Part shown: in pieces, positions 12,461 through 31,844 of the stretch
Position numbering within the stretch: position 1 is the first letter of the stretch
Layout: every line of letters starts with the position of its first letter
Assembly: GCA_963662405.2 (NCBI GenBank)
Contig: CAXXKT010000002.1
Coordinates: forward strand, 6,578-70,577
DNA: 64,000 nucleotides
DNA from: Syntrophales bacterium
Lineage (GTDB): Bacteria > Desulfobacterota > Syntrophia > Syntrophales > UBA2210
Reading direction: 5' to 3'
Notes under the pieces: model-generated
Seen by the model: the letters and a program-made list of their open reading frames with translations, nothing else
Databases searched by the model: none
What the model was told of the DNA's origin: nothing
Made by a program: the position numbers and the translations under genes

Positions 12461-12527
12461 CGCAGCCTGGTAGCGCGCCTGCTTTGGGAGCAGGATGTCG
12501 CAGGTTCAAATCCTGCCGCCCCGACCA
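12451..12527 (+). tRNA. tRNA-Pro (anticodon UGG), CCA encoded
   Basis: Manual cloverleaf: acceptor CGGGGCG/CGCCCCG, D arm GCGC-AGCCTGGTA-GCGC, anticodon arm CCTGC-TTTGGGA-GCAGG (UGG), T arm GCAGG-TTCAAAT-CCTGC, discriminator A plus CCA. Confidence 0.95.
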
Positions 12528-12530
12528 TTT
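12483..12530. repeat. att repeat copy 1 (tRNA-Pro from the anticodon loop to 3 nt past CCA)
   Basis: The 48 bp TTTGGGAGCAGGATGTCGCAGGTTCAAATCCTGCCGCCCCGACCATTT are identical at 21977-22024. The last 30 bp are identical at 31815-31844. Confidence 0.9.
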
Positions 12531-12584
12531 AAATCAAGTACTTATGATATATTCAGGGGAGTCAAAAAGAGATACTTTTATTAC

Positions 12585-12607
12585 CGGACCGTTTCCGGTA
12601 CCATTTT
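12585..12607. repeat. 23-bp direct repeat CGGACCGTTTCCGGTACCATTTT (left copy)
   Basis: Exact copy at 21826-21848; the similarity extends about 7 bp further 5' (TTATTAC vs TTATTCT). It lies ~55 bp inside att copy 1. Confidence 0.85.
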
Positions 12608-12746
12608 AATGAGTGCTTGAAGCACAAAAAAGGCCCCCGATCTCTCAGGAGCTTCAAATCCTTGCAAAAAGATCAAGAATCCATTTCCTTACTAAGCAAC
12701 ATCAACATGCTATCCAAATACGATAAAAAGAAGGGGGCATAAAAAC

Positions 12747-13157
12747 ATGGGATTTTTATCGCGCTTGTTCGGATCAAAAAAGCAAGAACTTATTGTCAAT
12801 ATACCTGGTCCCGGCCTATTTAAGCATGATGTAGTCGGGGAATCAAAATATCAGAAGGAGCTATCCGCAATATGTGGTGGCAAAACAGAGGACGGCCACA
12901 AAAAGGTTGTAACTGCCCTGCTGATACATGAAGACACTAATAAATATGACAACAAAGCCATCCTTGTTGCTATTGATGGCAATCCGGTTGGTTATCTTGA
13001 TAGAGAAAATGCGAGACAATTCAGGAAACTTCTTGCCGATGAAGGCTATCCCGGAGCCGGGGCAACATGTGCCGCCAAAATAGTCGGTGGCTGGCAAAGG
13101 AAAGACGGAGACGAAGGTCATTTCGGTGTCAAGCTTGATCTACCAGTGGTGGAATGA
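12747..13157 (+). CDS. hypothetical protein, HIRAN-like domain (tentative)
   Basis: 136 aa with a good RBS (AAGGGGG). VVGESKYQKEL...ALLIHEDTNKYDNKAILVAIDGNPVGYLDRENA...GHFGVKLDL resembles bacterial HIRAN-domain proteins, judged from memory of the family only. Confidence 0.45.
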   Translation: MGFLSRLFGSKKQELIVNIPGPGLFKHDVVGESKYQKELSAICGGKTEDGHKKVVTALLIHEDTNKYDNKAILVAIDGNPVGYLDRENARQFRKLLADEGYPGAGATCAAKIVGGWQRKDGDEGHFGVKLDLPVVE

Positions 13158-13367
13158 GGGCCGGGTGGTCTGGGTTCTGTTTTGAAAAGGGGGAGCTATG
13201 AAAACAAGCAGACTGATTAAATGTAAAAAACGTGACGGCAGTTATTGTTATTGTTCTTCTGATACTATTTTTTCTAACAGGCGGCTTCGGTCTGATGTAT
13301 TAAGAATATGGGATGGAGCAATTAAAGAAAGGGTATAATTAACAGGCTTGAAAGGAGACCGTGGAAG

Positions 13368-13595
13368 ATGTCGCACACAATCAAAGAACTCCGAGAAACA
13401 AGTGATGAACAACTTATAATTGACCATGATAAAAAAGCAGACAGTACCGATCCGGGTGTGAATTATTACCTCGATGAATTGCAGCGCAGGCAACAAAACA
13501 GACAAACCAAAATCATGTTGTGGCTTACTGTTGTGATAACGATATTAACAGCCGCCAATGTCATTACGGTTTTTGCTTCTCTGGCGTGTCGATAA
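13368..13595 (+). CDS. hypothetical small protein with C-terminal transmembrane helix
   Basis: 75 aa, RBS AAAGGAGA 8 nt upstream. A polar N-terminus is followed by IMLWLTVVITILTAANVITVFASLA. Confidence 0.45.
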   Translation: MSHTIKELRETSDEQLIIDHDKKADSTDPGVNYYLDELQRRQQNRQTKIMLWLTVVITILTAANVITVFASLACR

Positions 13596-13752
13596 ATTCT
13601 CTGACTTCATATCGTCCTGGTTTCCGCTCAAAGCTATTCATTTCCGAGAGCTTTGCTTTCATAACCGCTCTGCCAGTTGACCACATAATCGCCCCGTCCC
13701 CGGTATTCATCCATCTTGAAATTTCGGTGTTCCATATTCCATAATGTTTCAT
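13564..13752 (-). CDS. hypothetical small protein
   Basis: Track ORF 13564..13767; ATG 13752 is preceded by GGAGGA at 7-nt spacing (MKHYGIWNTEISRWMNTGDG...). Confidence 0.35.
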   Translation of the reverse strand: MKHYGIWNTEISRWMNTGDGAIMWSTGRAVMKAKLSEMNSFERKPGRYEVREFIDTPEKQKP

Positions 13753-13786
13753 ATTGCTGTCCTCCATTTTAAGAAAGGATCAAATA

Positions 13787-13975
13787 ATGACCGCACGAAT
13801 AAAAAGTATTGACAACGATCTAATAACCCTTGATGACGGTCACGCATATCGCGCCGAAAGAATGGATATGAATCGCCTATCATCGTGGAACGTTAATGAC
13901 AAGGTTAGAATAGGATATGATTACCTATTCCACTTTAAGCGCGAAAAAAAGGTACACGTCAGGCGCGAACGATAG
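13787..13975 (+). CDS. hypothetical small protein
   Basis: Track ORF 13754..13975; ATG 13787 lies behind AAGAAAGGA (MTARIKSIDNDLITLDDGHAY...). Confidence 0.35.
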   Translation: MTARIKSIDNDLITLDDGHAYRAERMDMNRLSSWNVNDKVRIGYDYLFHFKREKKVHVRRER

Positions 13976-14141
13976 GAACCACGCACGCTACCTCTATAAG
14001 AAGTTTCCCCTCGCAGGCAATCTCTTGCCCCTGGAGATTTCTTTTTTTGAAATCGCGGTCAAGAGGATAAGCATCCTCTATTGATACGACTTCGATACCA
14101 GCCGCTTTAAGATCACTAATTACCTTCTCTATTGTTCCCAT
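13959..14141 (-). CDS. hypothetical small protein
   Basis: 60 aa with a strong RBS (AGGAGGTGAGGT before the ATG). It sits directly downstream of terL on the same strand. Confidence 0.4.
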   Translation of the reverse strand: MGTIEKVISDLKAAGIEVVSIEDAYPLDRDFKKRNLQGQEIACEGKLLIEVACVVPIVRA

Positions 14142-14212
14142 ACCTCACCTCCTGAATTTTTCTTAACTCTACCCCAGGCCGCCGTCTTCGGGAGAGGTCA
14201 ACAATCTTGCGA

Positions 14213-15853
14213 TTAAAAACACATCCCGGCGAGGATCTCCTCTTTCGTCATATTTTCGTATGCTGAAACGAACGCGTCTTCATGTAGCAACAGGCCACCG
14301 GCAAGGGCCATAATTGCCGCGACTGCTGCATCTATCTTCTCTACGGATCGCCGCTTGGAGGGTTTCAGGTTTCCTGCTGCATCCGCTTCCGTGGTCAGAT
14401 TCGATATACACCACCGTAGCACCGGGTCATCGTTGTGACGGAGTTTTCTGGAAAGTATCAGTTTCAAAAGTTCCTTCGTTGGTGCTGACTGATCTTTGTA
14501 GCCCTGCCCGTGTCCGACCATGACCACACTTTCAGATTCAAGTGCTTGTCTCACCGATTCAGAGCCCCATCGGTCAAAGTGAATGGACTGAAGGTCAAAT
14601 TGTGTTTTCAGTTGGAGAATCTTCTCTATGATGAAGTTGTATTCAATCACAGCACCGGGAATCGCTATCAAGTCACCACTGTTAATCCATTGCAGGTAAG
14701 GTTTTCTCCGGTGCTGTCTTGCGGTATCTTCGGGCAGCCAGGACCAGGACAGCAAGTAAAAAAGATCCTCTTCACCGTCAGGAGGGAAACACAAGGAAAA
14801 GGATGTCAAGTCCTGTGTGCTCGATAGGTCAAGGCCACCGTAGCATTTACGGCCCGAAAGGTCAGGGATATCGCCCTTGCAGGCATCCCAATCGGTCATA
14901 GATATGAAGGGTGTAGCCGCTTCTGTCCACTGATTCAAGTGCAGCCTCTTGAATACGGCTTCATATGCAGGGCTTTCCTTTGCCCGTTCACACTCCCGTG
15001 CCAAGTACTCTTTGGAAATCGAAACACCTAAACAGGGATTGACGGCCTCCCAGATTGCCGAATCTGTCCAAGCGGCCCCCGTGGGAGCCTCATAAATCAC
15101 AGGGAAGAAGGCCTTGTCATTAATAACGCCGTCCTGGACACCCTTGGCGTATTGATATTTTTCGTAACATATGCTTGTCTGATCATATCCCGCCGTAGTA
15201 ATGGAAAGCGTCAATGGTTCCCGCCTCGCTCCCGTACTGGTTTGTAAAACGTCGATCAATTCACGGTCGGCGATTGCGTGAAGTTCATCAAATATGACAA
15301 GGTTTGAATTGCTACCATGCTTTGTGTTTGCTTCTGACGATAGAACCCGAAACACGCTGTCACGGTCAGGATATCTGATTTCACTTCTTAAGACTTCGGC
15401 GCGCCTGTCCAAATCCTCATCTTTAAAAATCATCATTTTCGCTGTATCAAAGACTATCCGTGCTTGTTGTCGATCCGCTGCGCAAGCGTAGAGTTGCTGG
15501 CCACGCTCCTCTTGGCAAAACAGAAAAAAGAGCGCAATACCAGAGATTAAAAGGCTCTTTCCGTTCTTCCTCGGTATGAAGATAAAGGCCTCCCGGAATC
15601 GCCTGAGGTGTGTCTTCTCATGCTTCCAGCCGAAAAGGTGGCCGATAATAGCCTCCTGCCACAATTCAAGCACAAAGGGATATAGGGCCTTTTCTCCGTG
15701 GACATGGTGAAGACACTCATGGAAGAAATCAATAGCCTCTTGACCGGCCTCGGCGTCAAGGTAGTAGTCTCCGGCGCTCTGGTACGGGTCGAATCTGACC
15801 GGATACCCCGGATTGAATTTGATCCAATCATTTGAAGAATCTATTTTTTCCAT
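14213..15853 (-). CDS. terL: phage terminase large subunit
   Basis: 546 aa with Terminase_1-type N-terminal ATPase (FIFIPRKNGKSLLISGIALFF, VIFDELHA) and a C-terminal nuclease region. It overlaps the terS stop. Confidence 0.85.
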   Translation of the reverse strand: MEKIDSSNDWIKFNPGYPVRFDPYQSAGDYYLDAEAGQEAIDFFHECLHHVHGEKALYPFVLELWQEAIIGHLFGWKHEKTHLRRFREAFIFIPRKNGKSLLISGIALFFLFCQEERGQQLYACAADRQQARIVFDTAKMMIFKDEDLDRRAEVLRSEIRYPDRDSVFRVLSSEANTKHGSNSNLVIFDELHAIADRELIDVLQTSTGARREPLTLSITTAGYDQTSICYEKYQYAKGVQDGVINDKAFFPVIYEAPTGAAWTDSAIWEAVNPCLGVSISKEYLARECERAKESPAYEAVFKRLHLNQWTEAATPFISMTDWDACKGDIPDLSGRKCYGGLDLSSTQDLTSFSLCFPPDGEEDLFYLLSWSWLPEDTARQHRRKPYLQWINSGDLIAIPGAVIEYNFIIEKILQLKTQFDLQSIHFDRWGSESVRQALESESVVMVGHGQGYKDQSAPTKELLKLILSRKLRHNDDPVLRWCISNLTTEADAAGNLKPSKRRSVEKIDAAVAAIMALAGGLLLHEDAFVSAYENMTKEEILAGMCF

Positions 15854-16199
15854 TGCCGTTTTCCTCTTCTCTTGGTGTTATTTTTACACCTCGGCTGTAT
15901 GGTGACAGTCCAAAGTGAGACAAAAGTTTCAAATAAAGGTCGCTGTAAGCTTTCCACATGGTAAAGGCCGGATGTTTTTTAGTGGTATCATGGAGCCCGT
16001 CAACGGCCAGGCCTTCACGCTCTATCAGCCGGTCAGATACTGTCATCTTATGGTAAACGCGACACAGGGTTTCAAAGGTCTCACGGTCAAGATTGTCCAG
16101 TGAGCCCGACTCTACTAGGCGCGGGCCAACGCTTTTCCATAACCTTTTTCCGTGTTCTCCCAGGTCTGAAGGTGCTTTCCAGAGCTTTGTAATTTTCAT
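15828..16199 (-). CDS. terS: phage terminase small subunit, P27 family
   Basis: 123 aa. ...GKRLWKSVGPRLVESGSLDNLDRETFETLCRVYHKM...KLLSHFGLSPYSRGVKI is characteristic of P27-family small terminases. Confidence 0.75.
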   Translation of the reverse strand: MKITKLWKAPSDLGEHGKRLWKSVGPRLVESGSLDNLDRETFETLCRVYHKMTVSDRLIEREGLAVDGLHDTTKKHPAFTMWKAYSDLYLKLLSHFGLSPYSRGVKITPREEENGNGKNRFFK

Positions 16200-16250
16200 A
16201 ATTTCCTCATTTACCTAAAACCGATTGACCTTCAGCGGTGTGCTTCTGCC

Positions 16251-16634
16251 CTAGCGCCGGTATGACGATCTCGCGCTTTCTGAAGATTTTACCCCCCCCT
16301 TGGCCCCATGCTCAACGTTGTGACAGGCAAGACAAAGGCTTTCCAGGTTATCCATAGCGAAGGGATCGCCACCGGCTTTCACTTCTTGCTTGTGGTGAAC
16401 CATCGTGGCAGGTGTAACCCTTCCCTGATCCATGCACTTCTGACACAAGGGAAACTCTTCCAGGTGCAACCGTCTAACCTTGCGCCATTGCGATGATACA
16501 TAGAGCGGGTCAGGTGTTTTGTTACCTTTCTCTTTCGTGTATCCCTTCAAGTGCTCATCACAATAACCCGAAGCATTACGGGTCAGATTGTGACAACCCT
16601 TCATTTTACAGACTCTGAACGCTCTCTTTGCCAT
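16251..16634 (-). CDS. HNH endonuclease
   Basis: Start moved to MAKRAFRVCK. It has CQKC...VHHKQEVKAGGDPFAMDNLESLCLACHNVEH (HNH with zinc cysteines). The position upstream of terS/terL matches HK97-like cos packaging modules. Confidence 0.85.
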   Translation of the reverse strand: MAKRAFRVCKMKGCHNLTRNASGYCDEHLKGYTKEKGNKTPDPLYVSSQWRKVRRLHLEEFPLCQKCMDQGRVTPATMVHHKQEVKAGGDPFAMDNLESLCLACHNVEHGAKGGVKSSESARSSYRR

Positions 16635-16766
16635 CAATTTTTTCTCCGCTTTATCACAACACACAAACGAGCCAGCCCACAGCAAAACCCATTATGGCCA
16701 TACACATATGAAGAAATATCTCTATTACGTTCATCTCATTATCTCCTCGCATCCCTGTTATTTTGT

Positions 16767-18491
16767 TCACCGTGCCATTTCATCAAACCTTGAATATTCC
16801 CCGTGATAATAAAGCAGACATTCCCCGCCGCTGTTGTACCGGCTCGCCTCAATCCTGACCAAGGTTGCCGGATCATAACTTTCCGTTGCTAATTCCCCGC
16901 CGTTTCCCTTCTTCCTGGCCCGGTGTAAAATTATCAGGTGATCGCAATCCGAAAAGATTGAAGATGAATCTTTCAAATCCATTGCCGTCATGATTGAGTT
17001 GGCCTGAATCTTTCGCGGTTGTGCAATCAGGATGATAGGAATTTCAAGTTCTTCGGCAAGGAACTTGAAGGCTTGAACGGCAAGCCCGATTTCTTGAACC
17101 TGGTTATTGATTGACCGGCAAAGAAAATGAAGATGGTCAAAGCATATCAGCTTCAGACCATAGCGCCGAATTGCCGCTTTCAGTGTTTCCATGATCCCGT
17201 CAAGTGTCGGCTTCTGGTAGCAGTAACCCAGGTAAAAGGGCTTTCCCTTGAAGTCGATCCGCGCCCTTTCGATCTCTGCAAGACCGATCTCTTCTGATTT
17301 GTTATGGCATTGCATGGCCTTCTGAACGATCTTCATCGGTCGCATCTCAAGGCAAAAGAAGAGGGAAGGAATATCTTGAAGGGCGTTATGGGTGATGGTC
17401 TGTAAAGCAAGGGTTGACTTTCCTATCTTCGGGGGTGCGGATAGAACAATCAGTTCACCCGGCATAAAACCCGTTTTGATTATACGGTCAACAGCCCCCC
17501 AGCCGGTTCTAATCCCAGTCGCCTGGTCCGGTCGTTGCGCTTCCTCTCGATACTTTTTCACACCTTCGGCAAAGGTCATGATCCCGGCAACATCAAATTG
17601 ACGCGCTTCATTGACCATCTCGGAAAATTCATTATGACCGCCGCCGGCCCGGAATAGGTCGTTTACGTCCTGGCCATCAGGTAAGGCCACGTTTAAACAG
17701 CGCTCATATCCTAACCTCCGCGCCGCTTCACGGGCTCCCTTCTGTCCCGGTTCATCCTGGTCATAGCAAAGGTATATTTTCTTAACGGCTTGAAGCTGGT
17801 CAATCCATGACGGGTCAAATGATCCAGCCCCTGTGGTAACTCCAACAACGTTTTTTATTCCCTGGTCAATCAAGGTCAATGCGTCAAGTTCGCCCTCAGT
17901 GATATAGATCTCATCCGGGTGTTCCTCTACAACGTCACCGTTAAAAAGGATTGACCGGCAACCCTTAACGCGCCGGAAGGTCTTTTCTGTGGGGGGCAGT
18001 GACCGGCTCTTAATGTTTATCAGCTTGTCTTTTTCGTAGTGGGGTATGGTCAACCATCGGCCCCCGTCTCTGTCGATCTGTAATCCAAGCTTGAAAGCTT
18101 TGGCGGTCTCAATGCTGATCCCCCTGGCCTCTGTGATGTAACTTACGGCGTTCTGGTCGGTCAAAAGGCGCTCATAGGCTTCTGTGGCCTTCTTTTCATC
18201 CGGCTTGATTGAAGGGGCGTCTTTATCCTCGAAAGCCTGCCTGACGGCTCCCTGTGGCTTCTGGTTCATGCGTCTGGTCCCTCGCTGTGGTTGAAAGTCT
18301 CCATAATGTTTTTGCAGGGTGATAAGGTTTCCCCGTTCCTGGCACTTGTGGCAATAGAAAGCGCCTTCATCCGGATCCATGTAAAAATGACTTTTCGGAT
18401 CCCCGCAAAAGGGGCAGGTTTTCAAGACTGCCTGTCCTGATTGAATCCGGTATTCAAGCCCCTTGCTCTGAATATATTCAAGTGCCGTCAT
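16767..18491 (-). CDS. bifunctional DNA primase/helicase (T7 gp4-like)
   Basis: 574 aa: zinc finger CPFCGDPKSHFY...CHKCQERG, Toprim (ITEGELDALTL, CYDQDEPG), DnaB/RepA-like Walker A SAPPKIGKST and Walker B ICFDHLHFL. Confidence 0.85.
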   Translation of the reverse strand: MTALEYIQSKGLEYRIQSGQAVLKTCPFCGDPKSHFYMDPDEGAFYCHKCQERGNLITLQKHYGDFQPQRGTRRMNQKPQGAVRQAFEDKDAPSIKPDEKKATEAYERLLTDQNAVSYITEARGISIETAKAFKLGLQIDRDGGRWLTIPHYEKDKLINIKSRSLPPTEKTFRRVKGCRSILFNGDVVEEHPDEIYITEGELDALTLIDQGIKNVVGVTTGAGSFDPSWIDQLQAVKKIYLCYDQDEPGQKGAREAARRLGYERCLNVALPDGQDVNDLFRAGGGHNEFSEMVNEARQFDVAGIMTFAEGVKKYREEAQRPDQATGIRTGWGAVDRIIKTGFMPGELIVLSAPPKIGKSTLALQTITHNALQDIPSLFFCLEMRPMKIVQKAMQCHNKSEEIGLAEIERARIDFKGKPFYLGYCYQKPTLDGIMETLKAAIRRYGLKLICFDHLHFLCRSINNQVQEIGLAVQAFKFLAEELEIPIILIAQPRKIQANSIMTAMDLKDSSSIFSDCDHLIILHRARKKGNGGELATESYDPATLVRIEASRYNSGGECLLYYHGEYSRFDEMAR

Positions 18492-19255
18492 ATAATCCTC
18501 ATCCCCTGGCTTCTGTAATGTTCATCAAGGGCATGACTCCCTGTTGACTTCATAACTTCCACGCTTGTCATGCTGGTCTCTGGTTTCAGATTTCGGATGA
18601 TTCCCAAAAGGTACTTTTCGCCCTTCTTCTGTTCTGCATATCCCTTTTCAAGATAAGCCCTGGTCCCTGTCATAACCGACTCAACCGGGTATTTATTCCA
18701 TGACTGCAAAATGGACAGCTTCACACTGTCTGCAATTCGGTTTGATTTTCTGGTTGATGATATGGCTTGAAATGCCTGGTTGATGATTTCCTGGTTTGAA
18801 TATCTTTCTTCCAGGGCAGAGATTTCAGAAAGTATTTTTTCAGGGGTTCTTTTCTTCTTATGTTCTTTTGTTCTTGTATGTTGCCCTTTGTTTGCCACTT
18901 GTTTGTCGTTTTGCGTGTCGTTTTCGTTCTCACTGCTCTGGTAAACGCTCCAATTTACAATGGTAATTACCGAAAACTTGTTTGTCGTTTTGCGTGTCAA
19001 ATTTCCGGCCTTTTCCAGAAAATCAAGAATGGTGCGGATTTCCCGGACTGTAAGGCCCGTTTCCTTAGAAGCTACGCGTAATCCGAAGATGAATTGACCC
19101 GGCATAAGGTGGACAACCTGCAAGCCTACAATGGCATCAAATTCTTTATGGGTAGCCTTCATGAGGCAGTAGGTCCAGAAAGCCCAAAGCTTATGATTCT
19201 TGATCCATCCGGCATCAAGGGACTTGCGCCATAGTTTCACATAGCCTTGATTCAT
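18488..19255 (-). CDS. replication initiator-like protein (phage O / DnaD-like winged-helix N-terminus)
   Basis: 255 aa. MNQGYVKLWRKSLDAGWIKNHKLWAFWTYCLMKA... is typical of phage replication-protein N-termini. ATGA overlap with the primase gene. Confidence 0.5.
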   Translation of the reverse strand: MNQGYVKLWRKSLDAGWIKNHKLWAFWTYCLMKATHKEFDAIVGLQVVHLMPGQFIFGLRVASKETGLTVREIRTILDFLEKAGNLTRKTTNKFSVITIVNWSVYQSSENENDTQNDKQVANKGQHTRTKEHKKKRTPEKILSEISALEERYSNQEIINQAFQAISSTRKSNRIADSVKLSILQSWNKYPVESVMTGTRAYLEKGYAEQKKGEKYLLGIIRNLKPETSMTSVEVMKSTGSHALDEHYRSQGMRII

Positions 19256-19464
19256 TTATCCGCCCCCACTGGTAGCTGATACGCCTTCGGATCTTCAAAC
19301 CGGGCATTGAAGAGTGCTGCAATTTCTTCCTCAGTGATCTGGACACGGCCCCTCTTATCTGCCAGTTCAGCGATTAGAAGGAACATGTTCGCGCCCAGAG
19401 GATTCTTCTGGAAAAGACGGTTGTACCGCTTCTTGAATTTCCGGTTCGGCTTGACGTCGATCAT
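19252..19464 (-). CDS. hypothetical protein
   Basis: Start moved to MIDVKPNRKF. It overlaps the downstream gene by 4 nt and is co-oriented within the replication module. Confidence 0.4.
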   Translation of the reverse strand: MIDVKPNRKFKKRYNRLFQKNPLGANMFLLIAELADKRGRVQITEEEIAALFNARFEDPKAYQLPVGADK

Positions 19465-19466
19465 GA

Positions 19467-19673
19467 TTAGGCCTCGATAGAACCCCGCGAACCATCCCGC
19501 GCCGCTAATCGTTCCGCCAGCCATGCATCAATCTCTTCTTCAAGCCAGCCAACAGAGTTTCCCCCCAACTGTAGCCGCTTCGGGAATCGTCCCGCCTTTT
19601 CCATTCTCCAGATAGTGGGATCGCTGAGGGGAACCCGTGATAGAAGTTCCGGTTTTCTGATTACTCTGGTCAT
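19467..19673 (-). CDS. alpA: AlpA-family transcriptional regulator / excisionase-like HTH
   Basis: Start moved to MTRVIRKPELLSRVPLSDPTIWRMEKAGRFPKRLQLGGNSVGWLEEEIDAWL, the classic AlpA/HTH_17 pattern. Confidence 0.8.
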   Translation of the reverse strand: MTRVIRKPELLSRVPLSDPTIWRMEKAGRFPKRLQLGGNSVGWLEEEIDAWLAERLAARDGSRGSIEA

Positions 19674-19788
19674 TGTTGCTTTTCCTTTCCGGCAAAAAAA
19701 ATGCCCATCAAGTGTTCTTTTGATAGGCATTAAAGCACAGTACAAAACATTGCTCTATGTATGGGGGTACGGCAGTTACGTACAGTAT

Positions 19789-20571
19789 TTATGGTGTAAC
19801 AGTGATATTGTTTCCCATTGGTGCGGCGTTTGTTGTATCGATCTTGACTGCGAAAGTATTTTTTGTGGCATAAATGACTGGTGAATCTTTGCCGTTTAAC
19901 AAGGTTGCATCCTTACCCGTGGCACCAGATAGGGTAACAATGTCACCGTCTAAAAGACCGTGATTTTCTTTTTCTATGATTGTAGGATAGCCTATTCTGG
20001 CAGTACAGTCCCGTACAGGGTCTTTCTTCCATTTTTCAGCGTTCCGATAAAACCATTGCTTAACAGTTTCAAAATTTATGTCTGTTCCCCACTCTTCTTT
20101 GACACATTGCGCCGCACCACGGAAGATATCATCCATTGGTTTGCCATCATTCTTGTTGATTTGATCAATAACATATGAAATAGCAATGATTCTTTCGCGA
20201 TAGGATTTGTATTGTTTCCAAGGTCCAGAACCGCCAGAAGAATCAAAGCCGAAGCACCAATCGAGCTTATTTGCCTTATTGTCTGTACGCATAAGACGCT
20301 TTGCGGTCCCGTCAAGATATTTTAATATCCATTCAGGGAGCGGGAGGCTGTTCTCCCGTACAAATTGGTAGGCGTCCCATACAGCAAGAGGGTTTCCTGT
20401 TTCCTCATAATCAAGTTTAAATCCATCAAGTGATCTCTTCTTTTGCTGCTGGATTATATCCAGCCCTCTAAAATAGGCTTTTAAACGAACCTCCACGGGT
20501 CCGCTTTCAGGCACTTCGGGGGGCAGAAGATAGTAGTTTAGAGGTAGTGTTCTACGTCGTTTTTTAGCCAT
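19789..20571 (-). CDS. hypothetical protein (260 aa) between integrase and alpA
   Basis: Start at MAKKRRRTLPL, 4 nt after the integrase stop. No motif recognised. Confidence 0.5.
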   Translation of the reverse strand: MAKKRRRTLPLNYYLLPPEVPESGPVEVRLKAYFRGLDIIQQQKKRSLDGFKLDYEETGNPLAVWDAYQFVRENSLPLPEWILKYLDGTAKRLMRTDNKANKLDWCFGFDSSGGSGPWKQYKSYRERIIAISYVIDQINKNDGKPMDDIFRGAAQCVKEEWGTDINFETVKQWFYRNAEKWKKDPVRDCTARIGYPTIIEKENHGLLDGDIVTLSGATGKDATLLNGKDSPVIYATKNTFAVKIDTTNAAPMGNNITVTP

Positions 20572-21790
20572 GCTTGTAATCCCCCATTGAAATAACTTTG
20601 CCGCCTGTAGGTGCAAATCCAAGGATTGATTGTAAGCGCCGTTCCCAAGCCATCAGCGCTTGACGTTTTTCTTTGTCATAGGGATAGCGATTATAGACGG
20701 CCAAAAGCCCTTGAAGTTTATGCCCCAGTACCCGCTCCGCGATTACATCATCAATTCCGATTTCAGCAAGACGGGTCCGCAGGGTCCGACGGATATCATG
20801 AGAAGAAAATCCCTCTGTGATTCCCATTTCCGACCAATGTCTCCGGATCGCGTTTGTCATTGCCCCCACCGTGACAGGAGTTCCTTCGTTATGCGTCGAT
20901 CTGAAAACCCATAATGAATCACTTGAATAAATCTTTGCTTCGTCAAGTATATCCTGCATCATAGGAACAACCGGAACCCGGTTTTCTTCGTTGTTTTTTC
21001 GAGCGTCCGCCGGTATCACCCACCACGCATCGGAGAGGTTCTCCCACTTCATCCTTGCAACCTCTCCCGGCCTTTGCCCGGTCAACAGGATCATTTTCAA
21101 GGATAGTTTTGTCAATCGGTAAATGTCGATCTCCGTATTTTCAAGATCCATAGCAGACCAAAAAAGCTTAATCTCTTCATCAGAAAGTACACGTGAACGA
21201 GGAGTTTCCTTGGTCTTCCGCATGCCACCCAAGGGAGAAAATTCTATCATCCCCCGTTCGGCTGCGAAGTTGAACATTCTGACAAGCACCCCTTGCAAAC
21301 GATTTGCACCAATAGGAGCTCGTTCTCTCACCTTGTCCAGTAACAGGACAGCATCCCGCCTTGTGATCGTGTTCACCTTGCGCCGTTTCCAAGAGGGTAG
21401 GGCATCTTTTTTTACAAGCCTTCGCCGCTCTCCGCCTGTCTTGCTTTTTGATAATTCTCGTTCCCAAAATTCGTTGAGTAGATCCTCAAAAGTTGGGTCC
21501 AGCTTGGATTTGCTCTTTTTTTCCTTGGCCTTTGCTGCTGGGTCAATGCCGTTTTCAACGTCTCGTAAGGCAAGAGCAGTCCGTTCCCTGGCCATGGCAA
21601 GTGAGACAGCCGGATATAATCCAAGGGAAAGCCTCTTTCGCCCCGGATTTTTGCCAGTATAGGTATAACGCAAGGTCCAGGATTTCTTCCCTGACGGATA
21701 AACCCGAAGGAATAAACCATTCTCATCTGCGAGATAAAACTCTTGATCGCGTGGTTTAATCCGTCTGATTTGAAGGTCAGTCAATGGCAT
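20564..21790 (-). CDS. int: tyrosine integrase, P4-type (N-terminal arm-binding DUF4102-like domain)
   Basis: 408 aa. MPLTDLQIRRIKPRDQEFYLADENGLFLRVYPSGKKSWTLRY is the P4-integrase N-terminus. Catalytic residues: TGQRPGE (R), SHDIRRT (HxxR), LGHK...AVYNRY (H, Y). Confidence 0.9.
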   Translation of the reverse strand: MPLTDLQIRRIKPRDQEFYLADENGLFLRVYPSGKKSWTLRYTYTGKNPGRKRLSLGLYPAVSLAMARERTALALRDVENGIDPAAKAKEKKSKSKLDPTFEDLLNEFWERELSKSKTGGERRRLVKKDALPSWKRRKVNTITRRDAVLLLDKVRERAPIGANRLQGVLVRMFNFAAERGMIEFSPLGGMRKTKETPRSRVLSDEEIKLFWSAMDLENTEIDIYRLTKLSLKMILLTGQRPGEVARMKWENLSDAWWVIPADARKNNEENRVPVVPMMQDILDEAKIYSSDSLWVFRSTHNEGTPVTVGAMTNAIRRHWSEMGITEGFSSHDIRRTLRTRLAEIGIDDVIAERVLGHKLQGLLAVYNRYPYDKEKRQALMAWERRLQSILGFAPTGGKVISMGDYKHG

Positions 21791-21976: not shown

Positions 21977-22024
21977 TTTGGGAGCAGGATGTCGCAGGTT
22001 CAAATCCTGCCGCCCCGACCATTT
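21977..22024. repeat. att repeat copy 2 (3' 48 bp of the tRNA-Pro locus)
   Basis: Identical to 12483-12530. It is not a complete tRNA because the 5' half is missing. Confidence 0.9.
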
Positions 22025-22070
22025 TTATATTATAATTACAATAACTTACAAAAGTTTTGTGCCTCAAAAT

Positions 22071-25867: not shown

Positions 25868-26045
25868 TTAAATCTTGATGTAAATTTTCTTAAAGTACCC
25901 AGCTGTAACAATCAGTTGCCCTGAATCAGTACGCTATGCGCGCAGCATCTCATGAATCAGTGAATTGATTTGACCCATTCAGGATAAATCATCCGCAGAG
26001 TGTTATGTCTATTAACGAAAGATATATCTATAAGGTGTGAATTTT

Positions 26046-26390
26046 ATGAAAAGAACGATCTCAGTCTTTATCGCATCTCCAAGTGATCTCGCCAATGAGC
26101 GTCGTTATTTCAAGGAAGCAATTAAACAGTTAAACGTAGGCTTTGGCGATGGTGCAAATGTCGAATTTGTACCTTTGGGATGGGAGGATACCCTGGCATC
26201 AACAGGAAGACGGAACCAGGATGTGATCAATAAAGAAGTAGATGAGTGTGATGTGTTTATTTTGGTAATGTATAGACGGTGGGGCCAAAACGCGCTCGAT
26301 GCAGAACCATATACGTCATACACAGAAGAGGAATTTTACAGAGCCCTTGAACGGTGGAAAAAAGAAGAGTCTCCTGAGATATTTGTTTTT
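26046..26390 (+). pseudogene. 5' fragment of a DUF4062 (TIR-like) domain gene, truncated by IS insertion
   Basis: MKRTISVFIASPSDLANERRYFKEAIKQLN...DECDVFILVMYRRWG...SYTEEEFYRALE...PEIFVF follows the DUF4062 pattern (VFISS..DL..ER / DiFigi.g.RYG / T..E...A / lvF). The ORF then runs into IS sequence. Confidence 0.6.
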
Positions 26391-27442
26391 GGCGATTATA
26401 TACTTGACAAACCCATTTGGGGGTGCTATTCTACTTTCAAATGGAGGCAAACCATGAAAACTATAGGATTTGATGCCCCGTATTTCACGGACGATAAAAA
26501 GGCTAGGCTATATCTTGAAAAAGTAAGATGGCCTAATGGTCCAATTTGTCCCCACTGTGGGAGTAATGAAAAGCATTATTCTCTCAAGAGCAAAGAAGAT
26601 TCTAAGAAACCAGTCCGGGAAGGTGTATGGAAGTGCAAAAAATGTAGGAAGCAATTCAGTGTTACCGTGGGAACGGTCTTTGAGAAAAGCCACATACCAC
26701 TTAACAAATGGCTATTTGCAACGTTTCTTATTTGCTCTTCCAAGAAAGGTGCGAGCGCACATCAACTGCATCGTATGATAGGGGTTACCTATAAAACAGC
26801 GTGGTTTATGTTTCACCGTATTAGATACGCAATGGATCAAAAGCCAAAAGGGAAAATGACTGGTACGGTTGAAGCTGATGAGACCTATGTTGGCGGGAAG
26901 GGGCATGGCAAGCGTGGGCGTGGTGCCGAAAAAAAGACTCCGGTCTTTTCCTTGGTAGAACGTAATGGTTCCGTAAGGTCCATGCCAGTAGAGCGCGTTA
27001 CAAGTGTAAACCTAAAGGCCATTATTAGGGAACATGTTGAAAAAACTGCAACTATAATGACCGATGACTTTCTTTCCTATCGTGGCTTGGGACGTGAATT
27101 CTCGTTGCATCACGTCATTAACCATGGTAATAAAGAATACGTCCGTGGGAATGTACACACCAACACGATTGAGGGGTATTTTAGTATCCTTAAACGCGGG
27201 ATAGTTGGGGTTTATCAGCATGTTGGTAAACAGCATCTTCACAGATACCTTTCTGAATTTGATTTCCGGTACAACGAACGTAAAGTTGATGATGCACAAC
27301 GGAGTGTATTGGCTCTGTGTGGCATTGAAGGGAAAAGACTTATGTACAGGGACTCATCGGCAGAAAGAAGGATTGCAATGTGAGGTCTTTTGATATGACT
27401 GAAATAAAAATACGGGTTTTGTTAAACAAGGGGAAAATCGGT
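26391..27442 (+). mobile_element. IS1595-family insertion sequence (boundaries approximate)
   Basis: Gapped imperfect inverted repeats: GGCGATTATATACTTGACAAACCCATTTGG (from 26391) versus the reverse complement of 27407-27442 (ACCGATTTTCCCCTTGTTTAACAAAACCCGTATTTT). They enclose a single transposase gene. No clear target duplication was found. Confidence 0.5.
26454..27383 (+). CDS. IS1595-family transposase
   Basis: Own RBS GGAGG, then ATG 26454 (MKTIGFDAPYF). N-terminal zinc ribbon CPHCG...CKKCRKQFSVTVGT, then a DDE domain (VEADETYVGG, IMTDDFLSY, HTNTIEGYFSILKRG). Confidence 0.85.
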   Translation: MKTIGFDAPYFTDDKKARLYLEKVRWPNGPICPHCGSNEKHYSLKSKEDSKKPVREGVWKCKKCRKQFSVTVGTVFEKSHIPLNKWLFATFLICSSKKGASAHQLHRMIGVTYKTAWFMFHRIRYAMDQKPKGKMTGTVEADETYVGGKGHGKRGRGAEKKTPVFSLVERNGSVRSMPVERVTSVNLKAIIREHVEKTATIMTDDFLSYRGLGREFSLHHVINHGNKEYVRGNVHTNTIEGYFSILKRGIVGVYQHVGKQHLHRYLSEFDFRYNERKVDDAQRSVLALCGIEGKRLMYRDSSAERRIAM

Positions 27443-28192
27443 GTTCCCCTAGATAAACTTGGAAACATTTCTAGTGAAACGATGAAATTCTTGCGTTTAA
27501 TGACTCGTGATGTGGGAATTTCTTCCTTTGACAAAGGCAAATGGATAGCGAAAAATTTTGAAAATGGTTCTCTTGCTTATGATAGCGTTTATGAGGGTGT
27601 CTATGAGCAGGAACATGTAGAAAAGTTTAATGCTGGGATTGTATATACAACTTCTCGTTTGCAAGAGGATATACCACGCTGCGATTTTGTGAGTTCTGAA
27701 ACCATGTTGCAATATACAAAAATCGGGAATCATATTGATGCAGGAGAAGTAATTGAGTTTGGACTGTACAAAAACGGAACGAGAGTTCCCGGTGAATGGA
27801 AAGAGCTAACAAAAGAAAAGGCGGAACAAATATCCAAGGTTGTTAAAACTTATGTAGAATATATGGGCTCAATATATGGCTCCATTCACGCTTTTAACAA
27901 GGGTGCTAAACCACAATTTATAAGTGTAAGGGATGCCATAACCGGTGATTTGATTCATTGCGAATTTGGGTTAGAGCACTATCAAGATATAATACGAGCC
28001 CTTAAAGGACCAAATTCAACTGTATATATTTCTGGTCGGATTAAAGAAAACCTTGTCACCAAAAAGATTGACTCCATTTCTTTAACAAGAATTAAGGTTG
28101 CTCCTGTATTATCTGATGAAGAATATCACATGTTTTTTGGATGTGCTCCCGATATTGAATCAATAAAGGATGATGATATCTATGGAGACTGA
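27395..28192 (+). CDS. hypothetical 266-aa protein; possibly the displaced 3' part of the DUF4062 gene (from ~27443)
   Basis: Open frame from 27380; the first ATG is 27395, 12 nt after the transposase stop and inside the putative IS right end. No P-loop or other motif was recognised. Its stop overlaps the PIN gene start by 11 nt. Confidence 0.5.
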   Translation: MTEIKIRVLLNKGKIGVPLDKLGNISSETMKFLRLMTRDVGISSFDKGKWIAKNFENGSLAYDSVYEGVYEQEHVEKFNAGIVYTTSRLQEDIPRCDFVSSETMLQYTKIGNHIDAGEVIEFGLYKNGTRVPGEWKELTKEKAEQISKVVKTYVEYMGSIYGSIHAFNKGAKPQFISVRDAITGDLIHCEFGLEHYQDIIRALKGPNSTVYISGRIKENLVTKKIDSISLTRIKVAPVLSDEEYHMFFGCAPDIESIKDDDIYGD

Positions 28193-28739
28193 AAACCGGG
28201 TATACATGGATTCGTGTTGTTTTATTGATATGGCGAAGATGGCAAAAATTACTCATCTCAATAAAAACACACACGATCCAACCGGAAGAACTGAGGATGT
28301 ATGGTACTTGAGGCGTCTGTGTGATGCTGCTAGGGCTGGAGATATCGAGATTATAAGCTCAACGTTGGCAATAGCCGAATGTCTTCATGATGGCAATCGA
28401 GACAAAATAGATGATACAGCAAAGGATTTATTTGAAAAATACCTAACTTCAGGAAGTGTTGTTTTACCTATTGAAGCTGGGTATGATGTGTGTGTTCAAG
28501 CGAGAGATTTATTTTGGAGGCACGGGATTCTTTTGTCGGGTGCAGATCAGGTGCATCTCGCATCAGCAATTGAAACGAATTGCAGGGAGCTCATCACCAC
28601 TGACGAGAAAATACAGACTAGGCAGAAATTTCATGATGCTATTGCGCCAATAGAGAAAATACTTGGAATCACAGTTATTCGCGCTTCGGCTACCACGATA
28701 TTGCCGGGGAAATATAGACAAGTACAAGCAGGCATATGA
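28182..28739 (+). CDS. PIN-domain nuclease
   Basis: METENRVYMDSCCFID (first Asp), LAIAEC (Glu), GADQVHLASAIE (Asp) and LITTDEK (Asp) give the four conserved acidic positions of PIN domains. RBS AAGGA. Confidence 0.7.
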   Translation: METENRVYMDSCCFIDMAKMAKITHLNKNTHDPTGRTEDVWYLRRLCDAARAGDIEIISSTLAIAECLHDGNRDKIDDTAKDLFEKYLTSGSVVLPIEAGYDVCVQARDLFWRHGILLSGADQVHLASAIETNCRELITTDEKIQTRQKFHDAIAPIEKILGITVIRASATTILPGKYRQVQAGI

Positions 28740-28909
28740 ATAAAAGCAAAAAGAATAAAGAAAATAAACCGCTAGAAATTGGTTCGCCAGTAATTGAACG
28801 CGATGAATTTGATGCGTTAATCAAGAAGGTTCTTTCTGTTCCCCCACCCAAGAAATCAGAAAAGAAAAGTAAAAAACAACGTCAAAAGGAGAATAAACAT
28901 GAAGAATGA
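28736..28909 (+). CDS. hypothetical 57-aa lysine-rich protein (below the ORF-track size cut-off)
   Basis: The ATG overlaps the PIN stop (ATGA). Translation: MNKSKKNKENKPLEIGSPVIERDEFDALIKKVLSVPPPKKSEKKSKKQRQKENKHEE. Its stop overlaps the next gene's start. Confidence 0.4.
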   Translation: MNKSKKNKENKPLEIGSPVIERDEFDALIKKVLSVPPPKKSEKKSKKQRQKENKHEE

Positions 28910-29144
28910 AAAACAGACTTCAGAAGAAGTTGCAAAACTTGCAGCGCAAACACTCCAAGACGATAATTCTTCCGCTACCGCTAAAAAGTTAGCTGCTTCT
29001 GTACTGTCACAATCGGGTACTGGAAAACAAACAGGCGCAGAGATAGAAGACCTTGCATCAAAGGTATTACAGAGCGATAAATATAGTGACGACACAAAGT
29101 CACTTGCTGGATCAGCACTTTCACAATCCAACAAAGATAGGTAG
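28899..29144 (+). CDS. hypothetical 81-aa protein with four internal LA-x-x-x-LQ/LSQS repeats
   Basis: Repeats VAKLAAQTLQD / AKKLAASVLSQS / EDLASKVLQSD / KSLAGSALSQS. RBS AAGGAGAA; translationally coupled to the upstream ORF. Confidence 0.5.
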   Translation: MKNEKQTSEEVAKLAAQTLQDDNSSATAKKLAASVLSQSGTGKQTGAEIEDLASKVLQSDKYSDDTKSLAGSALSQSNKDR

Positions 29145-29147
29145 CGA

Positions 29148-29414
29148 CTATCCTTTCTCTATAAGATCTGTAATTTTCTTTACGCTACAAGTTGGTATAT
29201 GAATAATACCTGATGCTTGGATATTGGTTTCTGATGATATATCACCCATGTTCGGAGCAATGGCCTTTACATCTTTACCGTCATAAATCATGAATCCAAC
29301 AGAAACACACGATATTGGATCGCTCTTATGATAGTCACTGAGGTGTTGCCACTCTGGGTATGGCCTCACACTATCAAACCATTCAATCATTACCATTCTA
29401 ACTTTTTTCTTCAT
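29148..29414 (-). CDS. hypothetical protein
   Basis: 88 aa, convergent with the PIN operon (3-nt gap between stops). No motif recognised. Confidence 0.4.
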   Translation of the reverse strand: MKKKVRMVMIEWFDSVRPYPEWQHLSDYHKSDPISCVSVGFMIYDGKDVKAIAPNMGDISSETNIQASGIIHIPTCSVKKITDLIEKG

Positions 29415-29509
29415 ATTTATATTGGGTTTCTAAAGTATATAATCGCCTTGTTTTTTTCAAGCGAGTTGATTCGGCATCAGAAGCAGACCCCGGGCCTCAA
29501 CTAAAAAAA

Positions 29510-31678
29510 GTGATTGATTTTAAAAAACGATTAGAAGATACGAGGCAGATTATTTATCGCTATTTCGACGATAAATCTGGTTTTGTCAAAGAGGTGGATA
29601 GCCATCTTCGTGCTTACGTAAAAGGAGATTTACCTAAAACGCCGTCAAGCAAAGATATAATTGTATTACCCACGGCTGCGATTGAAGAGATTGAAAAAGC
29701 TAAAACCTATGCTGAACAGAAAGCTTTAGAGGCAGAACAAGCTCATGATAATGCAGAAAAAACGCGTATTAAATTAGAGAAAATGCAATTACAAACTGCA
29801 AAGGATGCGGCGGAATTATCAAAAGAGGGGAAAATAGAATATGCACGGGAGAAATTTTCAGAGCTTTTAATAGAGTCAGTTGATTTGAGGATTTTATCTC
29901 TTGCATATGAGTTCTTCAATTGTACAGGTGATTTGGATTCAGCATTTGAAGCTTCGAGAAAGTGGTTAAGCATAAGTGGTCCTGATCAGAAATCCGCTGC
30001 TACAGCAAGTGCCTATGGCAATCTCGGAGTTCTGTATAAGACGCGAGGCGATTTTGAGCGCGCAGAAGAAATGTACCAAAAGTCATTGGTTATCGATGAG
30101 GCACTTGATCGTAAAGAAGGCGTGGCAATCACCTATGGCAACCTCGGTGTCCTGTATCAGATACGAGGTGACCTTGAGCGCGCAGAAGAAATGTACCAAA
30201 AGTCATTGACTATCAATGAGGAGATTGGTCGTAAAGAGGGTATGGCAAATGCCTATGGGAACCTTGGAGTTCTGTATAAGATGCGAGGCGATATTCAGAA
30301 GTCCGAAGAAATGTATCATAAGTCATTGGCTATCGATGAGAAGATTGGTCGCAAAGAGGGTATGGCAAATGCCTATGGGAATCTCGGGATTTTGTATCAG
30401 ATACGAGGTGACCTAGAGCACGCCGAAGAAATGTTTCAAAAGGCATTGACCATCAATGAAACGCTTGGTCGCAAAGAGGGTATGGCAAATAACTATTCTA
30501 GCCTCGGAATCCTCTATATAACGCGAGGTGACATCGAGAGATCCGAAGAAATGCACCAAAAGGCATTGGCCATAGATGACGCGCTCGGTAGCAAAGCCGG
30601 TATGGCAAATGAATATGGCAACCTCGGAATCTTGTATATGAAACGAGGCGATCTTGCGCGAGCCGAAGAAATGCACCAAAGAGCATTGGCCATCAATGAG
30701 GCTCTTGGTCGCAAAGAAGGTATGGCAAATGCCTATGGCAACCTCGGAATCCTGTATAAGACGCGAGGCGACCTTGCGCGAGCCGAAGAAATGTTTCAAA
30801 AGGCATTGACCATCAATGAAACGCTTGGTCGCAAAGAAGGTATGGCAAATGACTATTCAAACCTCGGGATCCTGTATAAGACGCGAGGGAACCTAGAGCA
30901 CGCCGAAGAAATGTACCAAAAGGCATTGACCATATCTGAGGCACTTGGCAGCAAAGAGGGTATGGCAATTGACTATAGCAACCTCGGGATCCTGTATAAG
31001 ACGCGAGGCGACCTAGACCGCGCAGAAGAAATGTACCAAAAAGCATTGGCCATCGATGAAGCGCTTGGTCGTAAAGAGGGCATGGCAAATGAATATGGCA
31101 ATCTCGGGATACTGTATATGGATCGGGGCGACTTAGAACGCGCCGAAGAAATGTACCAAAAGTCATTGGCTATCAATGAGGAGATTGGTCGCAAGGAGGG
31201 TATAGCAAATGCCTATGGAAACCTCGGAATTCTGTATCAGAGGCGAGGTGATCTAGAGCACGCCGAAGAAGTGTTCCAAAAGTCATTGGCTATCAATGAG
31301 GAGATTGGTCGCAAGGAGGGTATAGCAAATGCCTATGGGAACCTCGGGATACTGTATCAGATGCGAGGGAACCTAGAGCACGCCGAAGAAATGCACCAAA
31401 AGTCATTGGCTATCAATGAGGAGATTGGTCGCAAAGAGGGTATGGCAATTGGCTATAGCAACCTCGGGATCCTGTATAAGATGCGAGGGAACCTAGAGCA
31501 CGCCGAAGAAATGTTCCAAAAGTCATTGACTATCAATGAGGAGATTGGTCACAAAGAGGGCATGGCAATTGGCTATAGTAACCTCGGGATCCTGTATAAG
31601 ACACTAGGCGATCTTGAGCGCGCTGAAGAAATGCACCAAAGGTCATCACATCTTTTTACTGAATTGAAAAAATCATAG
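29510..31678 (+). CDS. tetratricopeptide-repeat protein (14 tandem 40-aa TPR_10/12-like units) with unique ~165-aa N-terminal region
   Basis: 722 aa, with the unit xYGNLGILYxxRGDLExAEEMxQKxLAINEExGRKEGMAN repeated 14 times. GTG start as given by the track, and no strong RBS, so the start is uncertain. Confidence 0.8.
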   Translation: MIDFKKRLEDTRQIIYRYFDDKSGFVKEVDSHLRAYVKGDLPKTPSSKDIIVLPTAAIEEIEKAKTYAEQKALEAEQAHDNAEKTRIKLEKMQLQTAKDAAELSKEGKIEYAREKFSELLIESVDLRILSLAYEFFNCTGDLDSAFEASRKWLSISGPDQKSAATASAYGNLGVLYKTRGDFERAEEMYQKSLVIDEALDRKEGVAITYGNLGVLYQIRGDLERAEEMYQKSLTINEEIGRKEGMANAYGNLGVLYKMRGDIQKSEEMYHKSLAIDEKIGRKEGMANAYGNLGILYQIRGDLEHAEEMFQKALTINETLGRKEGMANNYSSLGILYITRGDIERSEEMHQKALAIDDALGSKAGMANEYGNLGILYMKRGDLARAEEMHQRALAINEALGRKEGMANAYGNLGILYKTRGDLARAEEMFQKALTINETLGRKEGMANDYSNLGILYKTRGNLEHAEEMYQKALTISEALGSKEGMAIDYSNLGILYKTRGDLDRAEEMYQKALAIDEALGRKEGMANEYGNLGILYMDRGDLERAEEMYQKSLAINEEIGRKEGIANAYGNLGILYQRRGDLEHAEEVFQKSLAINEEIGRKEGIANAYGNLGILYQMRGNLEHAEEMHQKSLAINEEIGRKEGMAIGYSNLGILYKMRGNLEHAEEMFQKSLTINEEIGHKEGMAIGYSNLGILYKTLGDLERAEEMHQRSSHLFTELKKS
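30011..31675 (+). repeat. tandem 120-bp coding repeat array (about 13.9 units)
   Basis: The period is exactly 120 bp (unit starts 30011, 30131 ... 31571). Several non-adjacent units are nearly identical at the DNA level, e.g. 30421-30490 vs 30781-30850 and 31141-31215 vs 31261-31335. Confidence 0.9.
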
Positions 31679-31748
31679 CACTAAAAGAACATACATTTAG
31701 ACATTGTTCTATTTCAGACAAAAGATGTCAGCACCCTGCCAAGTATAA

Positions 31749-31769: not shown

Positions 31770-31814
31770 CCACCTTGTAAGTAGTTGATATTATTGGCTG
31801 TCGTCAGGTTCAAA

Positions 31815-31844
31815 TCCTGCCGCCCCGACCATTTTTATATTGTA
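31815..31844. repeat. att repeat copy 3 (last 30 bp of the tRNA-Pro locus; degenerate further 5')
   Basis: CAGGTTCAAATCCTGCCGCCCCGACCATTT is identical to the tRNA end. 31801-31814 (GGCTGTCGT) resembles GGATGTCG with one mismatch and one insertion. The 3' flank TTATATT is shared with copy 2. Confidence 0.85.

Follow-up and report, generated by a model that had tools for sequence, protein, structure and literature searches.

What does a tightly coupled string of four genes, one of them for a PIN-domain nuclease, do in the genome of a Syntrophales bacterium, and how did it come to be there? The string lies at 27395-29144 of a 64,000-nucleotide stretch of contig CAXXKT010000002.1 (assembly GCA_963662405.2, positions 6,578 to 70,577), hereafter the window. 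A first interpretation made from the letters and their translations (the sequence-only reading) had taken it for a multi-component defence or abortive-infection module rather than a classical VapBC pair, situated in an integrative element. We find that the string sits inside a transposon, an IS1595-family transporter insertion sequence (IS), and that its first three genes recur beside the same transposase lineage in distant bacteria. The four genes are the passenger module of this element, and we consider it fairly probable (roughly 60%) that the nuclease and its upstream partner act as a toxin-antitoxin-like maintenance or defence module.

The four open reading frames (ORFs) lie where they had been placed (Table 1), with start codons that agree with the N-termini of homologues, and all three junctions overlap, by 11 nt at 28182-28192, by an ATGA at 28736-28739 and again by 11 nt at 28899-28909. 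The position of the first ORF stands as well, and only its size has to be corrected, from 266 to 265 aa; we call its product P266 and the basic 57-aa product of the third gene K57. What had escaped the sequence-only reading is an IS1595 transposase gene ending 11 nt upstream of the 265-aa ORF, and the fact that the whole string lies between transposon inverted repeats.

The segment 26391-29447 (3,057 bp) is an IS1595-family transporter IS, that is, an IS-like element with passenger genes, because it combines a transposase, terminal inverted repeats and an 8-bp duplication, and its flanks rejoin upon excision. Between the left and right inverted repeats (IRL and IRR) it carries in order the transposase gene tnp, the genes for P266, the PIN nuclease, K57 and the 81-aa repeat protein, and a reverse 88-aa ORF, so that the interval from tnp to IRR holds five ORFs of the window's ORF list. 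The transposase matches NCBIfam NF033547 at 223.6 bits (cut-off 75) over the full model (1-215 of 215), as well as Pfam DDE_Tnp_IS1595 (PF12762, 5.6e-40) and Zn_ribbon_IS1595 (PF12760, 2.6e-16). By their ends (GGnnATTAT...) and size (3-6 kb), elements of this kind fit what we take to be the ISNwi1 group with passenger genes of the ISfinder table. A 15-mer of the transposon end occurs exactly twice in the window, which holds a single copy of the element, and the IRL motif is also found at the left ends of related elements (L004, L008, L012 and L025; loci are described below). The ends, which are intact, the duplication and the finding of five insertions independent of one another suggest that the element is capable of transposition. 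An A/T-rich target duplication of 8 bp (7-9 bp) is the norm in the IS1595 family (PMC12561309), and transporter ISs are a known class in the IS1595 and IS66 families (10.1101/2021.05.26.445724), those of IS1595 being attributed to Siguier, Gagnevin and Chandler (2009), as cited in PMC3129680.

Table 1. Coordinates and properties of the transposon, its split target gene and comparable elements. Positions refer to the window or, where a locus is named, to that locus.
Feature	Locus	Position	Strand	Details
5' part of split target gene	window	26046..26390	+	DUF4062 domain, 115 codons; PF13271 4.5e-12; PADLOC PDC-S60
Target-site duplication, left copy	window	26383..26390	.	8-mer TTGTTTTT, abuts the IRL; identical to the copy that abuts the IRR
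Left terminal inverted repeat (IRL)	window	26391..26415	+	25 nt, GGCGATTATATACTTGACAAACCCA; 92% complementary to 29423-29447
IS1595-family transposase (tnp)	window	26454..27383	+	309 aa, own ATG at 26454; N-terminal zinc ribbon and DDE domain
265-aa core protein P266	window	27395..28192	+	predicted N-terminal alpha/beta region and C-terminal OB fold; conserved partner of PIN
PIN-domain nuclease	window	28182..28739	+	185 aa, 11-nt overlap with P266; PF01850 34.9 bits (cut-off 23.6)
57-aa Lys-rich basic protein K57	window	28736..28909	+	ATGA overlap with PIN gene; pI 9.8
81-aa protein, two ~33-aa repeats	window	28899..29144	+	variable cargo; phrog_5079 (unknown function) 1.1e-24, two stretches
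88-aa ORF, last before IRR	window	29148..29414	-	phrog_25889 2.7e-06; probably cargo
Right terminal inverted repeat (IRR)	window	29423..29447	-	25 nt, pairs with IRL
Target-site duplication, right copy	window	29448..29455	.	TTGTTTTT; 8 bp, A/T-rich
3' part of split target gene	window	29456..31678	+	linker and TPR repeats
Complete element	L004			3,199 bp; duplication AAATTTAT; extra cargo: 94-aa and 109-aa ORFs
Complete element	L008			3,749 bp; duplication GAAATTAT; extra cargo: N6/N4 methyltransferase
Complete element	L012			2,983 bp; duplication TTTTTCAA; extra cargo: 139-aa ORF
Complete element	L019			6,025 bp; duplication CAAATTTG; extra cargo: 983-aa type IIG R-M-like gene
Methyltransferase/R-M-like gene	L008	8607-9914		
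Methyltransferase/R-M-like gene	L019	7410-10361		
Methyltransferase/R-M-like gene	L025	834-3857		
Methyltransferase/R-M-like gene	L015/L016			downstream
Methyltransferase/R-M-like gene	L033	1-2226		
R-M, restriction-modification; pI, isoelectric point.

The IRL also holds a conserved TTGACA box that resembles a -35 element, and a promoter-like site at this end (26404-26432) is a consensus match only, not above chance. A consensus-type scan found no terminator-like site on the + strand between tnp and the 81-aa gene, and tnp through the 81-aa gene would, as far as consensus matches only can tell, be consistent with one operon.

Removal of the element restores the gene that it entered. When 26391-29455 was deleted in silico, the sequences 26046-26390 and 29456-31678 joined in frame into an 855-aa DUF4062-TPR ORF with zero internal stops, and the PDC-S60 match, now spanning the junction (residues 1-243), rose from 60.8 to 93.5 bits. 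A candidate defence gene has been knocked out here by transposon insertion. It had been suggested that P266 might extend to ~368 aa if fused to DUF4062; we reject this fusion, as a 993-bp transposase region lies between both ORFs and the DUF4062 part continues into the TPR ORF instead. The homologues of P266 are moreover separate proteins, ~250-295 aa long, whose match begins at residue 1 (all those listed, partial ones included, measure 126-295 aa, and nearly all match from the first few profile residues). The longest ORF at the locus (26037-27383, 448 aa), which runs from DUF4062 (residues 10-103) across the IRL in frame into the transposase, is a junction artefact that automatic annotation would probably present as a fusion of DUF4062 and transposase. 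On the other side of the element, a promoter-like site in the IRR (29416-29443, TTTATA-16-TATAAT; a consensus match only) is directed outward at the severed 3' TPR fragment, which might possibly still be expressed, the first in-frame start in the ORF list being a GTG at 29510. The TPR part of the split gene is itself an array at the DNA level (29885-31744), with ~14 copies at a 120-bp period and 73-83% identity.

We then asked how often these genes travel together. First pattern scans of genome and metagenome contigs (A1) returned nothing, whereas scans with a 9-sequence alignment (A4) added 23 more distant loci, whose gene content was scored with local hidden Markov models (HMMs). An IS1595 transposase lies directly upstream of P266 in ~19 of the ~26 distinct informative loci, a sample picked by peptide patterns and not a census. 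Contigs with close homologues and readable flanks share one order, namely tnp, a gap of 8-23 nt, a protein of ~262-269 aa, a PIN protein of 161-191 aa, a basic protein of 43-63 aa and a variable end, and the matching order and spacing were seen in L002-L005, L008, L009, L012, L014, L019, L021, L022, L025-L030 and the P0013 contig. The joint occurrence of the four genes, which a single module would entail, is thereby borne out for three of them, in the same order and with the same coupling; the 81-aa protein is variable cargo. Five elements (those of the window, L004, L008, L012 and L019; 2,983-6,025 bp) have both ends and a clean 8-bp duplication; in L025 inverted repeats are present and a clean duplication was not found. 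At L019, a second IS1595-type end (10817-10848) and a second transposase gene (11663-12628; 41% identical to that of the window) start at the right duplication, an arrangement that suggests tandem or nested insertions.

P266, PIN and K57 are a conserved core that is co-inherited with this transposase lineage across distant bacteria and moves with it as one unit. Pairwise identities of transposase, P266 and PIN are correlated (r = 0.87-0.91 in 6 complete elements), the transposase being always the most conserved and its identity falling to 40-45% across related elements. A neighbour-joining tree of P266 places the members linked to a transposase in four deep clades, with transposase-less ones interleaved; because the linked clades are deep and the others are scattered among them, the tree favours an old single association of the core with the transposase, followed by later losses. 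P266 and PIN without transposase were found in L013, L015/16, L018, L020, L023 and L032. Since the pair also occurs in this form, it would be able to function alone. All transposase-less loci with a complete PIN have an intact active site in it (L015, L016, L018, L020, L024 and L032; L013 and L023 end within the PIN gene, and L024 stands for the L023 lineage). PIN directly follows P266 wherever downstream sequence exists, with the exception of L033, where a truncated P266 remnant stands without PIN and is the sole orphan; conversely, no PIN without P266 was seen among the examined loci.

The PIN protein had been described as keeping all four acidic catalytic positions, and comparison with relatives confirms this; the protein itself matches PF01850. 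The residues D10, E66, D122 and D141 (in YMDS, IAEC, GADQ and TTDE) are kept in 21 of 21 aligned relatives, the first position being D or E, so that the active site is under constraint. The protein carries an insert of ~30 residues and ends in a LPxxYRQ tail that is conserved, and a PIN-family profile run against the sequences of the PDB found no solved PIN structure at E <= 1. The gene overlaps that of its upstream partner by 8-11 nt across loci. Its resemblance to VapBC thus comprises a PIN protein with four acidic residues and a translationally coupled partner gene upstream. As the sequence-only reading had argued, the string is nevertheless not a classical VapBC: the partner, at 265 aa, is 3-4 times larger and carries none of the usual antitoxin DNA-binding domains (RHH, AbrB, Phd or HTH), the PIN protein, of 185 aa, has its insert and tail, and most copies have no promoter region of their own.

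P266 itself belongs to an unannotated family, represented in a profile search by 405 cluster representatives at 50% identity; it has no match in Pfam, NCBIfam, PADLOC or PHROG, and close homologues of both P266 and PIN are few. An AlphaFold (AF2) model built from a 143-sequence alignment reached a predicted local distance difference test (pLDDT) score of 92.4. In this predicted model, residues ~150-240 form an OB fold, whose matches in the PDB are Stn1, the anticodon-binding domains of Asn- and Lys-tRNA synthetases, the single-stranded-DNA-binding protein (SSB) Rim1, ExoVII and the RecG wedge; two family members independently match Pfam Stn1 and tRNA_anti-codon. No solved-structure match was obtained for the N-terminal half, and a profile search of PDB sequences returned nothing meaningful for P266. 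The best full-length structural matches of the model are two uncharacterised phage proteins (TM-score 0.37-0.48), one of them annotated DUF6575 (E 3.5e-10, TM 0.48). Searches of phage sequences gave nothing, neither tblastn with the window P266 against a phage collection nor a P266 pattern scan of IMG/VR.

The third member of the core is Lys-rich, as had been noted. K57 relatives share a motif, (D/E)EFDA(V/L)(M/I)KK(I/V)LSxPP, followed by a K-rich tail (alignment of 6 homologues). Scored by HMM or by eye, such a relative comes after PIN in 12 of the 13 loci with a linked transposase (L019 lacks one) vs 0 of the 6 transposase-less loci, these being raw counts without phylogenetic correction. 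K57 would thus track the transposon state and not the PIN pair, and it probably serves the element, for example in DNA binding or regulation. This distribution also bears on a toxin-antitoxin system in reverse order, where the downstream K57 would be the antitoxin of PIN and P266 would have an unrelated role. K57 is indeed small, overlaps the PIN stop codon and is conserved in nearly all transposon copies. However, it is not the antitoxin, because all six transposase-less loci retain an intact PIN, together with P266, and have no K57-like ORF. Its strongly basic charge is also set against the acidic PIN (pI 5.7; P266 has a pI of 5.8 and the transposase one of 9.9). We therefore reject K57 as the antitoxin of PIN and regard the reverse order as very improbable.

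The same distribution, together with the fixed place of the genes, could suggest that the core proteins are accessory factors of transposition. The OB-fold protein would then bind single-stranded or flapped end DNA and PIN would be a structure-specific DNase, for instance cutting the non-transferred strand in the manner of TnsA of Tn7 or processing flaps, in a multi-protein transposon. Several observations fit: the fixed place of the genes right behind tnp, tightly coupled even between deeply diverged elements, the co-divergence of transposase, P266 and PIN, the resemblance of the OB fold to SSB, ExoVII and RecG-wedge domains, and the occurrence of K57 only where a transposase is present. Yet intact P266-PIN pairs exist without transposase or recognisable ends, PIN matches the VapC-type family PF01850, whose characterised members are RNases, and most IS1595-family members consist of the transposase alone, so that the chemistry of this transposase needs no such partners. 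Such accessory factors are accordingly improbable in our estimate. Hardly more probable, and still unlikely, is a bolder version, by which P266, PIN and K57 are no cargo but functional components of a separate IS1595 lineage with a multi-protein machinery (for second-strand or flap cleavage at the ends, or as a transposition-coupled kill switch) and the transposase-less pairs are domesticated derivatives; if this is true, no IS1595 or IS1-superfamily element before it would have had an accessory nuclease dedicated to it.

Beyond the core, the contents of the elements vary. The 81-aa protein is a repeat protein, as claimed: its self-alignment scores 68, a value attained by none of 500 shuffled sequences (26 +/- 5). 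Relatives of it are absent from all related loci examined, and we reject it as part of a conserved system, since its counterpart is missing from the other loci. The reverse-strand 88-aa ORF inside the IRR may be a recurrent right-end gene: an L025 ORF in the same position and orientation (6680-6934, - strand) is weakly similar (24% identity end to end; E 5e-4 in a single comparison), and apart from this weak match no counterpart was found in other loci. In five settings (L008, L019, L025, L015/L016 and L033; Table 1), the extra cargo or the direct neighbours of P266-PIN include DNA methyltransferase or type IIG R-M-like genes, the L008 methyltransferase resting on Pfam (N6_N4_Mtase) and the genes of the other four being read by eye from translated ORFs.

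This cargo raises the possibility that the string is anti-phage or abortive-infection cargo, in which the OB-fold protein detects a nucleic acid or a protein of the phage and sets PIN free or steers it, the transposon doing no more than spreading the system between defence islands. Besides the methyltransferase and R-M-like genes, several features would suit such a role. L033 and L012 lie beside AAA-ATPase genes (judged to be of defence type by eye only), the window copy lies in an island and is inserted into a candidate defence gene, and P266-PIN persists without transposase. In addition, DUF6575, the annotation of the best full-length structural match, which is phage-encoded, is listed in a validated defence system from an E. 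coli pangenome screen (PMC9519451). That link is structural and weak, with TM-scores of only 0.37-0.48 and undetectable sequence similarity, and we treat it as a lead only. Furthermore, PADLOC-DB v2 gave zero matches at E <= 0.1 for the 265-aa, PIN, 57-aa and 81-aa proteins, the pair is joined to the transposase in most sampled loci and transcribed behind tnp rather than self-controlled, and the neighbourhood does not discriminate, as toxin-antitoxin modules are also enriched in defence islands. Of the proposed multi-component defence module, the multi-component nature stands, and a pure defence cargo is possible though somewhat doubtful, ranking above the other alternatives.

For this passenger module of an IS1595 transporter IS, we favour the reading that its core is toxin-antitoxin-like. 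P266 and PIN would form the pair. PIN would be active as a nuclease, in all likelihood on RNA as VapC is, and the OB-fold P266, encoded upstream and translationally coupled, would bind or restrain PIN or direct it to nucleic acid. The pair would make loss of the transposon, or of the replicon that carries it, costly, and could also act as an abortive-infection module. Transcription of the genes seems to start at the promoter that the IRL provides for the transposase. The toxin-like features are the acidic residues in 21 of 21 PINs, the upstream and overlapping partner gene and the fact that PIN was never seen without P266. A defence role is no likelier than a selfish one in which the pair maintains the transposon.

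A number of points weigh against this reading. Toxicity, neutralisation and stabilisation by P266-PIN are predictions from sequence and to that extent conjecture, and so are autoregulation and neutralisation by a P266 that is far larger than known VapB antitoxins and devoid of RHH, AbrB, Phd or HTH domains. No separate promoter region precedes the pair in the transposon copies, most of which have it 8-23 nt behind tnp; addiction modules are not usually arranged in this way. Addiction modules are also usually common on plasmids, and tblastn of a plasmid collection with the window P266 and a Lysobacteraceae P266 found nothing. The R-M and methyltransferase neighbours suit a defence role equally well, and the locus sample was selected by pattern, so that its frequencies are not those of a census.

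The closest precedent for the proposed function is found in Tn3-family transposons, where PIN (PF01850) or PIN_3 toxin pairs adjoin the transposition genes and are not ordinary cargo (Lima-Mendez et al. 2020, PMC7157771). These pairs have been proposed to stabilise the transposon or its carrier replicon, were acquired ~10 separate times and have small RHH, Phd or AbrB proteins as antitoxins (PMC7157771). The likeness lies in a PIN-type pair beside transposition genes. In contrast, our element belongs to another transposon family with another chemistry, its PIN has a 265-aa OB-fold partner and an extra basic miniprotein, and the data favour one old association with later losses over multiple acquisitions. 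From other IS1595 transporter ISs, with which it shares a single DDE transposase with N-terminal zinc ribbon, inverted repeats of ~25 bp, an 8-bp A/T-rich duplication and passengers between tnp and IRR, the element differs in that a three-gene core is conserved beside tnp across deep divergence and only the distal part is variable. No paper linking IS1595 with a PIN module was found in the literature searched. Transporter ISs and transposon-borne toxin-antitoxin pairs are already known, whereas the OB-fold/PIN/basic-miniprotein core and its long association with IS1595 appear to be undescribed in that literature.

The wider setting agrees with the earlier placement of the locus in an integrative element, as it lies in an island bounded by repeats of a tRNA-Pro 3' end. 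The 3' end of tRNA-Pro(TGG) (12451-12530) recurs twice downstream, at 21977-22025 (48 nt identical) and at 31805-31834 (30 nt identical). These repeats delimit two low-GC islands that lie in tandem at this tRNA, one at ~12.5-22.0 kb and the other at ~22.0-31.8 kb, and the transposon-split DUF4062-TPR gene is the final gene of the second. The first island (12747-21790) has genes for both terminase subunits (large and small), an HNH endonuclease, a primase-helicase (Toprim and DnaB_C) and a tyrosine integrase, no capsid or tail genes were found among its ten scanned ORFs, and it may be a phage satellite or remnant.

Altogether, these results correct the annotation of the locus, where a DUF4062-TPR gene is split by a transposon and the 448-aa fusion ORF is spurious, and they define a module of an unannotated OB-fold protein and a PIN nuclease, mostly joined, in the sampled cases, to an IS1595 transposase and a tiny basic protein. 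Should the core proteins act in transposition, they would represent a new mechanism for the superfamily. If the pair is an addiction or defence module, toxin-antitoxin pairs integral to transposition modules would extend from Tn3 to the simplest class of transposons, and the element, compact at 3 kb, would be a vehicle by which R-M and methyltransferase genes pass from one genome to another.

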